The notes under the pieces are model-generated. The model worked only from the letters and a program-made list of their open reading frames with translations. It made no database searches and was not told the DNA's origin. A stretch of DNA of 37,786 nucleotides from Planctomycetaceae bacterium (GTDB taxonomy: Bacteria > Planctomycetota > Planctomycetia > Pirellulales > UBA1268): NCBI GenBank assembly GCA_046094845.1, contig JBJTIE010000183.1:1-37786 (forward strand), written 5' to 3'. Every line of letters starts with the position of its first letter. The first letter of the stretch is position 1. Both the position numbers and the translations under genes were made by a program. Of this stretch, positions 15,615 to 37,786 are shown one piece after another.

Positions 15615-15659
15615 GCGAACCGTTATACACGCCGCCCCGGAGACCCGTTGCGCATACCC

Positions 15660-15802
15660 GTAGTCCGCATGCTCCGCATGCGGCACCCGGTGTACATACC
15701 GCAGGCCTCGGCTATTCCCGTGCGAGTCTGCCCGCCGGTGTCCGGCATTCGTTCGGCCTGCGGTATTCATGCCGTGGGCCACACACGGAGTGTGTGGACT
15801 AC
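15660..15802. repeat. REPIN-like doublet, family A (143 bp)
   Basis: GTAGT-CCGCATGC-TCC-GCATGCGG (15660-15683) and an inverted copy at 15779-15802, between the divergent mfd and ilvB genes. Confidence 0.9.
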
Positions 15803-15907
15803 GGGGAGTGACGGGCCTACGGGGGTCTCCCGGTTTTTGGAGCCGTTTTCATCGTGTATGGTTGAGGGACGTCATCCACCTGTTTCACCCCGCCCAGGAG
15901 CCCCCGC

Positions 15908-30157: not shown

Positions 30158-30300
30158 GTAGTCCGCACGCTCCGCGTGCGGCCCCCGGTCAGAACGCCAG
30201 GGGGCCGTGCTACTGCCTCGTGGATTCGCGAACCTCTTCACTGCAGCCATTCGGCCTCTGGCCTTCATGCCCACACCCGCACGCGGAGCGTGCGGACTAC
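30158..30300. repeat. REPIN-like doublet, family A (143 bp)
   Basis: GTAGT-CCGCACGC-TCC-GCGTGCGG (30158-30181) and its exact inverted copy (30277-30300), between divergent genes. Confidence 0.9.
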
Positions 30301-33375: not shown

Positions 33376-33742
33376 TCCACATGCTCCGCGCCGTAGTCCA
33401 CATGCTCCGCATGTGGCAGACGGTGTGAAAGCCGCAGGCCCGAGCTACTGGCGTCTGGGTTCGCGTACGTCTTGCGGAATAGCCAGCGACTCGGCCTTCG
33501 TGCCGTGGGCCGCACACGGAGTGTGCGGACTACGGCGCTTCGCAAGCGGCCACGTCTGCGCCGTAGTCCACATGCTCCGCATGTGGCAGACGGTGTGAAA
33601 GCCACAGGCCCGAGCTACTGGCGTCTGGGTTCGCGTACGTCTTGCGGAATAGCCGGCGACTCGGCCTTCATGCCGTGGGCCGCACACGGAGTGTGCGGAC
33701 TACGGCGCTTCGCGTGAGCGACGCGTGTCGTGCGCGGACTAC
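33356..33742. repeat. Tandem array of family A REP doublets (two 141-bp units, 170-bp period) plus partial copies
   Basis: Units 33393-33533 and 33563-33703 are nearly identical. There is a 21-bp slippage duplication at 33369-33410 and a degenerate REP end (cggactac) finishing at 33742. Confidence 0.92.
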
Positions 33743-34702: not shown

Positions 34703-36145
34703 TCACGACCTCCCCGGGTGCACGACCCACGTATCTTTGCTGCCGCCCCCCTGCGACGAGTTCACCACGAGCGAGCCCTTCACGAGGGCCACGCGGGTGA
34801 GGCCCCCGGGCAGCACGAAGATCTCCTCGCCGTAGAGGATGAAGGGCCGCAGATCGACGTGGCGGCCCTCCAGCGAGTCGCCCACCACCGTGGGCACCCG
34901 CGAGAGCGAGAGCATCGGCTGGGCGATGTAGTTGCGGGGATTCGCCTTGATCTGTGCCCGCACCTCGTCGAGTTGCGCCTTCGACGCCCGCGGCCCGAGT
35001 ACGATGCCGTAGCCGCCGGATGCATCGGCCGGCTTGAGCACGAACTCCTCGAGCTTCGAGAGCACGTGCTGGCACTGCTTCTCCTCGCCGCAGACGAACG
35101 TGGGCACGTTGGGGATGATCGCATCTTCGCCGAGGTAGTAGCGGATCATCTGCGGCACATAGGCATAGACGGCCTTGTCGTCGGCGATGCCCGTGCCCGG
35201 AGCGTTGACGAGCGCCACGTTGCCCGCGCGGTAGGCCGCCATCAGGCCGGGCACGCCCACGACGGAATCCTCACGGAAGGCGAGCGGATCGAGGAAGTCG
35301 TCGTCGATCCGGCGGTAGATCACGTCCACCCGTTCGAGGCCGCGGGTCGTCCGCATGAAGACGACGTCGTTTTCCACGACGAGGTCCGACCCCTGCACGA
35401 GCTCCACGCCCATCTGCCGGGCGAGGAAGCTGTGCTCGAAGTAGGCCGAGTTGTAGATGCCGGGCGTGAGCACCACGACGTTCGGATCCCTTGCCTGCGG
35501 CGGGGCGATGTATTGCAGCATCGCCAGCAGCTTTTCGGGGTAATTCTCGACGGGGCTGATTCTCTGGCCGGCAAAGAGCTGCGGAAACGTCCGCTTCATC
35601 ACCTCGCGGTTTTCGAGCACGTACGACACGCCCGACGGCGTGCGGAGGTTGTCCTCCAGCACGTACATCACGCCGTCGCCGCCGCGGACGAGATCGGTGC
35701 CGGTGATGTGGCACCACACGCCGCGGGGGGGCTTTAGGCCGGCGCACGGGCCGCGGAAGCACTTGCCCGAATCGACGAGCCAGTCGGGCACGACGCCGTC
35801 GGCCACGATCTGCCGCTTGTTGTAGACGTCGTCGATGAACAGGTTGAGGGCCTGGATCCGCTGCTTGAGGCCGCGTTCGATCACGGCCCATTCGGCGGCG
35901 TCGATCACGCGGGGCACGATGTCGAAGGGCCAGATCTTCTCGGTGCCGGCCTCGTGGCCATACACGTTGAACGTGATGCCCATCGTGAGCAGGGCCTTGT
36001 CGGCGGCCCGTTGCCGCTCGGCGAGTTCACCGTTGGAGAAGCCGGCCAGCCGCTTGGCGAGCAGTTCTGCCCCGGGGCGGGGCAGAAGGTTCGCGTCGAA
36101 GAGCTCGTCGTGGAACCCGTCAGTCTGGTACGCCTGCAGATCCAT
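34703..36145 (-). CDS. Circularly permuted type 2 ATP-grasp protein (DUF404/407)
   Basis: [58 protein letters not shown] and [14 protein letters not shown] motifs. Confidence 0.95.
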
Positions 36146-36251
36146 GGCGAAAGCGGCCGCTCACAGGAGGACCCGCGGCACCGGCCGCCTCTGCACGACA
36201 CGCGGGAACGGGCAGCGTACCGCATCGACGGCGGCGATGAAATCCCCTGCG

Positions 36252-36380
36252 GGGCAGTAGCTCGGGCCTGTGGTGTTTTGACCGTGGGCCACATGCGGAG
36301 CATGTGGACTACGGCGCCGTAGTCCGCACGCTCCGTGTGCGGTTGGAGATGGCAGGCCGAACGACCGGCTATTCCGCAGG
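36252..36380. repeat. RAYT downstream flank: back-to-back family A REP pair with REPIN-arm sequences
   Basis: REPs at 36289-36312 (minus) and 36319-36342 (plus); 36252-36320 is identical to 37171-37239. Confidence 0.9.
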
Positions 36381-37064
36381 AGGCGTGCGGGCCTGCTCGC
36401 TCCCCACGATCGGCTCCGGCCGCAAGTACACCACGTACTCGTCGTCACGGAGCCCGGCCTTGCGTGGGTTGTCGGCGATGTACAGCCGCCATGCCTCCAG
36501 GCCGCGCAGGTTTCGCAGCACGCGGTCATAGCTTTCCGCCTGCCAGAAGCGGCCTCGCAGGCCGAGATCGCGGTGAATTCGAGTCGCCGCATACCGCTTC
36601 CACGAACTGCACTGCTGCCGCATCGTGCCTGCAGCCGCAAACCCGGCCAGCACGTGCACGTGGTTGGGCATCACGACGAACGCATCCAGATCGTACTGCG
36701 TGCCGTCGCCGTAGCGCAGCGCATCGACGACGTGCTGCCGCAGCGATGGCGTTCGCAGCACGCATGCCCCGTGGCAGGCATCCAGCGAGTCGTGCCACGC
36801 TCGGGCGCACTGGCGAGTGAACTCGGTGCGGTCCTGCGGGCTCAGCCGGGCGAGGGAGTCGGCGTCGCGGGTGTCGCTGGTCGCGATTCCGTGCTCGCGC
36901 AGCCATGTGGCCCGCCGCGCCGACAATTCGAGGCAGGTCTGCCGTGGGAGTGAGTCTGCCGTGCGGAATGTGATGAAGTAGCAGGCGTGCGGCTGCTCCC
37001 AGTGGGGCAGCCTGCCGCGGGAGACGGTCGTGGGAACCTCGGGCGTGAAGAAGTGATAGTCCAT
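36369..37064 (-). mobile_element. rayT: REP-associated tyrosine transposase (RAYT; HUH Y1 superfamily related to IS200/IS605 TnpA)
   Basis: LPHW..., YFITFR, VVMPNHVHVL (HUH), WK, FWQ.ESYDR and YIADNP (catalytic Tyr) motifs; flanked on both sides by GTAG-REPs. Confidence 0.9.
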
Positions 37065-37170
37065 GACTCGCTCTCAGTGGACGCGCGGCCTCTGAGTAAG
37101 AAAACGAGAGCGGAGGCACCCAGGGGCAAAATTCCGAGAAAAATTTCCGTGGGGGGTGGGCGGAGCCGGA

Positions 37171-37313
37171 GGGCAGTAGCTCGGGCCTGTGGTGTTTTGA
37201 CCGTGGGCCACATGCGGAGCATGTGGACTACGGCGCCGTGGTCGCACACTTCCCCGTAGTCCGCACACTCCGTGTGCGGGAGCGGGCATGAACGCCGAGT
37301 GACCGGCTATTCG
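37171..37313. repeat. RAYT upstream flank: back-to-back family A REP pair with REPIN-arm sequences
   Basis: REPs at 37208-37231 (minus) and 37256-37279 (plus), followed by gaccggctattc as in the other flank. Confidence 0.9.
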
Positions 37314-37338
37314 TCAGCGGCTGGGCTTCGCAACGGGC

Positions 37339-37786
37339 CTACGGCTTCGCTGGCGCTGCCGGCTTCTTCGGGTCGAACGTGATCGAGGCGGAGTTGATGC
37401 AATACCGCAGGCCGGTCGGGGGCGGGCCGTCGTTGAAGACGTGACCGAGGTGGGCGCCGCAGCGGCGGCAGGTCACTTCCGTGCGGATCATGAAGTGTGA
37501 GCGGTCCTCGTGCTCGGCGACCGTCTTGCCCTTCACGCCGTCGATCGGCGCGTTGAAGCTCGGCCAGCCGCAGCCCGAATGAAACTTCTCACCCGAACTG
37601 AAGAGCGGCTCGCCGCAGCAGATGCAGCGGTAGGTGCCGGCCGTTTCGGTGTCGGTGTACTTGCCGGTGAAGGCCCGCTCCGTGCCTTTCTTGCGGGCCA
37701 CTTCGAACTGCAGCGGGCTGAGCCGGCGCCGCCACTCCTCGTCGGTCTTCGGGAGATCATCGTCGGCGATGCGGCCGGCGATGGCG
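37339..37786 (-). CDS. msrB: Peptide-methionine (R)-S-oxide reductase; the 5' end lies outside the window
   Basis: KTDEEWR..L...QF.V.R..GTERAF, Cxx[16 protein letters not shown].CxxC.AHLGHVF.DGP and RYCINS motifs. Confidence 0.95.

Follow-up and report, generated by a model that had tools for sequence, protein, structure and literature searches.

The 37,786-nucleotide stretch analysed here, called the window, is the entire contig C183 (JBJTIE010000183.1) from the genome of a freshwater planctomycete (G000; 3.10 Mb in 339 contigs, 98% complete, 69% G+C). It carries a gene for a REP-associated tyrosine transposase (RAYT) that is surrounded by copies of a repetitive extragenic palindromic (REP) sequence. 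The locus is probably a REPtron, in other words, a domesticated, single-copy gene for a RayT-type nuclease of the HUH/Y1 (histidine–hydrophobic–histidine, single-tyrosine) class together with the family of REPs and hairpin-forming REP doublets (REPINs) that it serves. The gene is fixed at one chromosomal site in four related species and is under purifying selection, and the dispersed doublet, when its bases are aligned with those around the gene, is the gene-bearing unit minus the gene. The locus is a REPtron with an unusually legible layout, and a largely expected example of a known partnership between a repeat and an enzyme.

A RAYT gene between the halves of a REP doublet

The REP of this system is the 24-mer GTAGTCCRCAYRCTCCGYRTGYGG, of which 265 exact copies lie on 121 of the 339 contigs, rising to 340 copies when up to three mismatches are allowed. 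The chance expectation for such a 24-mer is near 1e-6 by the authors' own arithmetic, and the reversed pattern, used as a control, had no match in five relatives. Variants of the REP stem change jointly on both sides (CACATG..CATGTG, GCACAC..GTGTGC and GCATGC..GCATGC), and these paired changes indicate that the hairpin is kept. Oppositely oriented REPs with GTAG on the outside form 99 pairs that span 140–144 bp and one more that spans 148 bp. The next close pair spans 913 bp, from 36319 to 37231, and has the RAYT gene inside it.

The doublet is asymmetric, with a CACATG-type REP, an arm A of 34 nucleotides (nt), a linker of 23 nt, an arm B of 36 nt and an inverted GCACAC-type REP. A doublet that the initial annotation had picked out at 33563–33703 is real and turned out to be the second of two tandem copies. 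Folded as single-stranded DNA (33559–33707, one copy folded), it formed a long hairpin of −41.9 kcal/mol (z −3.8) compared with −30.5 ± 3.0 kcal/mol for its shuffles, none of 200 of which folded as well. The alternative fold consists of two small REP hairpins.

Read on the minus strand from 37231 to 36319, the sequence runs from a REP, arm A and linker through a gene for a 231-amino-acid HUH/Y1 protein to a linker, arm B and inverted REP. The gene and its leader, about 760 bp in all, thus occupy the centre of one 141-bp REPIN unit, at the linker that forms the apical loop of the long hairpin. The complete order on this strand is msrB; arm B and inverted REP; 24 nt; REP, arm A and linker; leader and gene; linker, arm B and inverted REP; 6 nt; REP, arm A and the start of a linker; and the ATP-grasp gene (Table 1). 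Because of this four-piece order, the gene is both bracketed by two doublet halves and flanked by direct repeats of about 150–180 bp, the latter owing to the two outer half units, and four REPs lie within 200 bp of it. The placement of the gene inside an expanded REPIN had been proposed in the initial annotation and was borne out by REP pairing and by profile matches; the annotation lacked the two half units outside the bracket and some 100 solitary half units elsewhere in the genome.

The similarity of the arms beyond the 24-bp REP, on which that proposal hinged, held up in a formal comparison. Ninety of the 100 doublets could be oriented (the 10 excluded ones had two REPs of one type or of unclear type) and were used for a full REPIN profile of 142 positions, REPs included, and for a REP-less one that covered just the 93 positions between the REPs. 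In a genome-wide search the REP-less profile matched both sides of the gene, at 37207->37147 (positions 1–61, E 1.4e-8) and at 36397->36350 (positions 38–86, E 9e-4), and both outer half units, at 36288->36246 (positions 1–43, E 9.6e-7) and at 37326->37285 (positions 47–89, E 1.5e-3). On either side of the gene the homology therefore covers the arm and reaches into the linker. The stop codon of the gene, as had been read from the sequence at the outset, is part of the repeat: it is the TAG at 36369–36371, inside ...GGAATAGCC... in arm B. The inner-right piece encodes the last nine codons as well as this TAG, and the C-terminal tail that derives from the repeat is missing in the RAYT alleles of two relatives, G051 and G013.

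Table 1. Features of the RAYT locus and the free doublets of the window, from the msrB side downwards
Feature	Coordinates	Strand	Basis and remarks
msrB, 3' part	37339..37785	−	open reading frame (ORF) list; continues beyond the window; adjoins the RAYT gene upstream on the minus strand
Outer-left half unit: linker end, arm B, inverted REP (type GCACAC)	37256..37327	−	full REPIN profile positions 70–142, E 3.3e-12; aligned to consensus 71–141
24-nt spacer, two REPs facing apart	37232..37255		sequence
Inner-left piece: REP (type CACATG), arm A, linker	37145..37231	−	full profile positions 1–87, E 1.3e-17; directly upstream of gene leader
RAYT leader/promoter region	37065..37144	−	about 80 nt; part of the ~760-bp cargo
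RAYT gene, 231 amino acids, RayT/TnpA_REP-like HUH/Y1 nuclease	36369..37064	−	ORF list and protein analyses; H135-V-H137, Y195
Inner-right piece: linker, arm B, inverted REP	36319..36397	−	full profile positions 62–142, E 3e-11
6-nt spacer GGCGCC, inverted REP to next REP	36313..36318		sequence
Outer-right half unit: REP, arm A, first ~9 nt of linker	36246..36312	−	full profile positions 1–67, E 4.2e-16
ATP-grasp family gene	34703..36145	−	ORF list; downstream neighbour
Two free 141-bp doublets in tandem	33393..33703 (33393–33533 and 33563–33703, 29-nt gap)	+	REP pairs
Free doublet	30158..30300	+	REP pair and comparison with relatives
Free doublet	15660..15802	+	REP pair and comparison with relatives

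The RAYT protein

By model scores and fold comparison the protein appears to be nearest to the RAYTs, in line with its initial annotation. REP_Tyr_transpos (NF047646) was its sole NCBIfam match and was matched by all 46 aligned members of its family. An AlphaFold model of the protein (predicted local distance difference test score, pLDDT, 92.1; predicted template modelling score, pTM, 0.87) had as its best Foldseek match in the PDB the E. coli TnpA_REP protein on a REP hairpin (4ER8, E 1.8e-5), followed by the ISDra2, IS200 and IS608 transposases. Nearly all of the 20 best matches were TnpA_REP or transposases of the IS200/IS605 type (E 1.8e-5 to about 1e-2, target template modelling score 0.45–0.58), and a sequence search against PDB chains gave a weak match only, again to 4ER8 (E 0.04). 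The metal-binding His-hydrophobic-His motif is present as H135-V-H137, aligned to the HMH of 4ER8. Y195 lies in a C-terminal helix (186–202 of the model) and aligns to a Y-I-x-x-N-P stretch of 4ER8, which is taken here to hold the catalytic tyrosine of the E. coli enzyme. Together with N199 and P200, these residues (H135, H137 and Y195) are invariant in the 46 aligned homologues. Of 3033 scored candidates, 2134 proteins belong to the family at E <= 1e-10. They come mostly from Planctomycetota and Verrucomicrobiota, and those with a name usually bear that of 'REP element-mobilizing transposase RayT', 'transposase' or 'putative transposase'; many homologues also carry a precomputed match to Pfam PF01797 (Y1_Tnp). 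The ratio of nonsynonymous to synonymous substitution rates between the gene and its copy in the relative G021 is 0.14, which argues for purifying selection.

One gene at one site

In G000 the RAYT gene was found in a single copy by tblastn, along with a 38%-identical paralogue on contig C225, and a Pfam family search returned two other weak Y1-like ORFs. None of these other Y1-like ORFs of G000 (on C225, C231 and C253) adjoins the REP GTAGTCCRCAYRCTCCGYRTGYGG, and the 913-bp unit was not found a second time. The C225 gene (2100–3250; 38–42% identical) is a second RayT-like gene that has GTAG hairpins of its own, of a fourth type (…CACAGAGTG..CACTCTGTG…).

A search of 40 relatives with the protein, together with the msrB loci of 60 genus members, identified four genomes, G000, G021, G051 and G013, that have a RAYT gene at the msrB/ATP-grasp site. 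Three of them, G000, G051 and G013, show the full three-gene order; the G021 contig has msrB and then the RAYT gene and stops short of the ATP-grasp gene. No RAYT gene stands beside msrB in the other 26 msrB loci that were read. The G021 gene, also present in one copy, encodes a protein 95% identical to that of G000 and has the same REP pairs, and the layout of the two loci is conserved, with 92% DNA identity over 1531 bp. One difference lies in the 24-nt spacer, which holds an 18-nt stretch absent from G021, where the spacer is 6 nt long. The RAYT proteins of G051 and G013 are 59% and 51–57% identical to that of G000, the G013 allele being broken by a stop codon. Identity to the window copy of the msrB protein is 99% in G021 and 97% in both G051 and G013, and the ATP-grasp protein is 94–96.5% identical in G051 and G013, at 94% in the former.

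At this locus G051 and G013 carry other REP types. In G051 one complete 60-bp doublet lies upstream of the RAYT gene and three lie downstream, and the stop codon of the gene is in the GTAG of the first downstream REP. The portion of the leader nearest the gene looks recognisable by eye upstream of the G051 and G013 alleles; a further likeness of arm A and the linker to these leaders came down to short common words seen by eye, and nothing is claimed beyond the gene-nearest part. Three diverged RAYT alleles (51–59% amino acid identity), each with its own REP type, thus occupy one site (window 36246–37327; locus L025 of G051, 250–1520; locus L026 of G013, 400–1520) between genes that are 94–99% identical across species. 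The alleles may have evolved very quickly where they stand, may be what differential loss has left of an old cluster, or may have been swapped by recombination. The second REP type, that of G051, has also left a remnant at the edge of msrB, the TAG stop of which falls within the GTAG of this remnant (37339–37345; L025 1480–1520) in G000, G021 and G051, so that the REP provides the end of a housekeeping gene as well.

Empty or doublet-only alleles between msrB and the ATP-grasp gene were looked for, as had been suggested. Five RAYT-less loci (L042, L044, L048, L049 and L052), from genus members at a greater distance, were considered and set aside, because the ATP-grasp-family gene that follows msrB in them is only 33–35% identical and is a different gene. 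In four of these (L042, L048, L049 and L052) other long inverted repeats, such as GGGGCAGCCCGTGCCA ... TGGCACGGGCTGCCCC, lie between msrB and that gene.

In the initial annotation the unit had been put forward as a possible autonomous parent of the doublets. [quoted passage not shown] A gene between inverted, hairpin-bearing ends is what such an element would look like, and the relative G029 has duplicate units on different contigs (92% identical over 909 bp), so that units of this kind can duplicate. Set against this are the single copies in G000, with its 98% completeness, and in G021, the one msrB/ATP-grasp site occupied in four species and the lack of a second 913-bp unit; in the published view, REPtrons do not transpose as a unit (PMC3333891, PMC8266576). 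No evidence for an autonomous element was found in the genomes compared, and this explanation is considered very improbable.

The G029 pair, in another family of the order, consists of two units with a REP doublet, a RAYT gene and a REP doublet (L009 1329–2236 and L015 1444–2330). The reading frame has a stop in both, and a third copy, L022, is unrelated. The pair would be a REPtron duplicated as a unit, which is unusual according to the literature.

A sister doublet beside the gene

In G021 the sequence downstream of the RAYT gene leads into an adjacent doublet, intact up to the point where the contig stops. It takes the same position as the outer-right half unit of G000, which is cut at consensus position 67 and stops at flank sequence common to G013 and G051. 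The intact doublet consists of the piece upstream of the gene (70 of 73 positions identical), 2 nt and the piece at the 3' end of the gene (48 of 49 identical), and the junction of the two is clean and lies in mid-linker. Unrelated doublets differ at a median of 9 of the 34 positions of arm A and 11 of the 36 of arm B; relative to the consensus, the median number of mismatches is 0 in the REPs, 6–7 in each arm of 34–36 positions and 5–7 in the arms and linker. Given such differences, the close match of both pieces marks the gene-bearing unit and the adjacent doublet as sister copies. Gene-bearing unit and doublets would be parent and derivative, in one direction or the other.

Both directions had been entertained from the start, with the doublets as gene-deleted derivatives or the RAYT gene as captured inside one. 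The sister copies uphold the relationship itself; as to its direction, a MITE-like step in which a copy of the unit lost its gene is favoured weakly over capture of the gene by a doublet. The G021 arrangement is compatible with gene loss from a duplicated unit and also with insertion of the gene into either member of a tandem pair of doublets; a third, less economical route would be amplification on the spot and then recombination at the linker. A more far-reaching version of gene loss, in which the locus preserves the configuration of REPIN birth, is held to be possible and rather less likely than not to be right. Here the RAYT gene would sit in the loop of a master unit, and the G021 doublet would record how a duplicated unit lost its gene precisely, perhaps through excision by the RAYT protein at its linker sites.

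Traces of gene excision were sought in public reads, as Logan contigs from four metagenome runs compared with the 1.8-kb locus. Skips of about 810–850 bp were seen, and they carry other letters between their sides or have short sides. They were not counted as gene excision, as they represent dispersed doublets from elsewhere that map through their REPs. The Logan contigs that match the window exactly span the gene and are interrupted at the REPs; contigs are blind to rare variants.

Half units and the bracket around the gene

The full profile gave 219 non-overlapping matches in the genome, made up of 104 full doublets, 103 half units, 10 partials at contig ends and 2 internal pieces. The half units away from contig ends divide into 59 left and 44 right ones, and their ends cluster in the linker (profile positions ~66–80). 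A right half, a gap and a left half, as found on either side of the gene, also meet at C4:8663–8835, combinations of half and full units occur on C310, C232, C14 and C291, and the 54-bp span from inverted REP to next REP seen across the 6-nt spacer occurs four times in the genome. The C4 unit is a lone arm B and inverted REP followed, after 29 nt, by a REP and arm A; it matches in form the two repeats on either side of the RAYT gene, and could be a remnant left by loss of a gene between two such units.

Repeats around RAYT genes were surveyed at 80 loci of protein relatives from named Planctomycetota and Verrucomicrobiota assemblies, 73 of which remained after 7 with short flanks were dropped. 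With the threshold set at 26.0, the highest score between flanks of different loci, direct repeats between upstream and downstream flanks were found in 57 loci, inverted repeats in 39 and either kind in 63. The window locus itself scores 72 for direct and 22.5 for inverted repeats. With direct repeats in 57 of 73 loci and either kind in 63, flanking repeats are the rule in this family.

These counts bear on a further explanation, in which the bracket is a by-product of a local REPIN array: four independent half units, shuffled or truncated at the linker, happen to surround the gene, and the gene-bearing unit and the doublets have no parent–derivative relation. Half units that equal the doublets in number and end at the linker would be expected on this account, as would the junctions that recur on other contigs and the direct repeats at most family loci; the two arm B copies beside the gene differ considerably from each other, and local amplification of bacterial interspersed mosaic elements (BIMEs) by TnpA_REP has been proposed (PMC3333891). 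Against it speaks that in G021 the left and right pieces meet within 2 nt on the neighbouring doublet at 96–98% identity, that the order and orientation of the pieces are those of one doublet, and that the layout is conserved between G000 and G021. Such an origin of the bracket is judged unlikely, though it is given more credence than an element that moves as a whole.

Mobility and abundance of the repeats

Mobility was judged from a small sample, four doublet sites within 20 kb that were checked against G021, G013 and G051. The site of the 15660–15802 doublet is empty in G013 and G051 and has another REP type in G021, the 30158–30300 doublet is at the same site in G021 (98% identical), and the tandem pair at 33393–33703 is a single copy in G013. 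Doublets have therefore been gained or lost at the same sites between relatives. The 15660–15802 doublet also had the appearance of a nested insertion between remnants of another REP type, an interpretation that was dropped because the remnants are not cleanly resolved. Around it (15620–15850; L059, L060 and L061) G021 has an array of a third REP type, and the region looks like a hot spot for several REP families.

The three REP types differ widely in number among the four genomes (Table 2), and none of them was found in a further genome, G053. In G000 and G051 the resident RAYT allele accompanies the most abundant REP type; in G021 and G013 it does not.

Table 2. Copies of three REP types in the four genomes with a RAYT gene beside msrB
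REP type	G000	G021	G051	G013
X (the REP of this study)	265	94	3	109
Y (G051 type)	20	17	193	52
Z (G013 flank type, <=1 mismatch)	9	261	4	73

Several results weigh against the interpretation of the locus as a REPtron whose doublets and gene-bearing unit are parent and derivative. The link of enzyme to REP abundance is suggestive and not clean. G013 has 109 X-type REPs and no matching RAYT was found there, the allele at the locus being broken and of another type, and none was found in G021 for its 261 Z-type REPs, absences that are not firm as these assemblies are 92–97% complete. The protein scores are modest: 56.7 bits (E 2.4e-15) for REP_Tyr_transpos, below the 80-bit equivalog cut-off, and 16.7 bits (E 0.008) for PF01797, below the 23-bit gathering cut-off. 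Half units are about as common as doublets, and with this and the direct repeats at most family loci the bracket is less special than it first looked, which weakens the case built upon it. Finally, the overlap of the two inner pieces (25 nt, consensus 63–87) was considered as a duplication like that of a target site and rejected, as the similarity is weak and C-rich and no overlap exists at the G021 breakpoints.

Proposed mechanism and relation to known systems

On the REPtron interpretation, the RAYT protein most likely spreads the 141-bp repeat. By analogy with the biochemistry of E. coli TnpA_REP and IS608, it would bind the GTAG-tagged REP hairpin with its 7-bp stem in single-stranded DNA and would cut beside the hairpin and in the linker by means of Tyr195 and a metal site at His135/His137. 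Rejoining of the strands could then copy 141-bp doublets and half units of about 70 nt in trans to new intergenic sites and amplify them locally, while the RAYT gene itself would stay put. E. coli TnpA_REP cleaves inverted REP and linker sites and recombines them (PMC3333891), and an activity of this kind would yield half units, which fits the clustering of half-unit ends in the linker.

Single-copy, fixed RAYT genes flanked by their own REPs or REPINs are textbook knowledge in E. coli and Pseudomonas (PMC3333891, PMC8266576, PMC3116915, PMC3337134, bioRxiv 10.1101/2021.07.10.451892). The E. coli K-12 REPtron (tnpA_REP/rayT, with y/z2 REPs in BIMEs; PMC3333891, PMC8266576, PDB 4ER8) likewise has a single-copy HUH/Y1 gene at a fixed locus, GTAG-tagged REP hairpins of two subtypes with inverted pairs at the gene borders, and hundreds of dispersed REPs that are often joined by linkers into pairs and arranged in tandem. 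The planctomycete protein differs in its length (231 against 165 amino acids) and is about 14% identical to TnpA_REP over the structural alignment; the doublet is long, at 141 bp with arms of 34–36 nt, and the gene lies between the halves of one doublet, in contrast to the E. coli gene, which lies between whole BIMEs. The REPIN–RAYT systems of Pseudomonas fluorescens SBW25 and its relatives (PMC3116915, PMC3337134, bioRxiv 10.1101/2021.07.10.451892) also have inverted REPs paired into doublets whose ends are conserved and whose spacer varies; these doublets fold into a long hairpin and occur in about 100 copies or more. Their RAYT gene is likewise single-copy, keeps its extragenic location from one relative to another and has its own REP type in the flanks. 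The differences here are the planctomycete host, half units as common as doublets, a gene bracketed by the halves of its own doublet down to the arms and linker, and the sister doublet beside the gene in G021.

The host had been seen in the initial annotation as a novelty, a point that does not stand. GTAG REPs and tyrosine-transposase genes with flanking repeats have been published for Planctomycetes, namely R. baltica (PMC3733652), as have TnpA-Y1 classes (PMC6006769). The same study by Di Nocera et al. 2013 describes 'TIRtrons' and RAYT genes enclosed by long inverted repeats that consist of a REP and a further stem-loop (PMC3733652). As here, the gene lies between long inverted repeats that are also dispersed as single, dimeric or grouped copies and may overlap its 3' end, and these too are reported in R. 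baltica; the inverted repeats of the present locus carry canonical GTAG REPs, and its dispersed dimer equals the joined flanks at the nucleotide level. With the IS200/IS605 elements and their MITE derivatives the system shares the HUH/Y1 core, subterminal hairpins and a short form without cargo that needs the enzyme in trans. It is set apart from them by a gene that is not multi-copy, the lack of tnpB, hairpins that are mutually inverted rather than on the same strand, and the IS200 transposase model (transpos_IS200), which just 10 of the 46 family members matched, and weakly. No published case of a gene-less doublet shown, spacer included, to be the joined flanks of a RAYT gene was found in the available parts of the literature, by a search that was not aimed at this point. 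An origin of REPINs from the REPs or ends of an ancestral, RAYT-bearing (IS200-like) element has been put forward as a hypothesis and is listed among the open questions (PMC3116915, PMC3337134).

The value of the locus is that a gene-bearing form and a gene-less doublet can be aligned base for base, spacer included, and stand side by side in one relative. The aligned pair provides concrete substrates for biochemistry and population sequencing, and the three RAYT alleles with their own REP types at one site are a natural comparison for the specificity of enzyme and repeat. If the ordinary interpretation is right, a well-resolved planctomycete REPtron is added to a known class. If the locus does preserve the birth of a REPIN, it would be direct sequence evidence that REPINs arose from the ends of a RAYT/IS200-like element, and it would offer a system in which this step of origin could be re-run in the laboratory.

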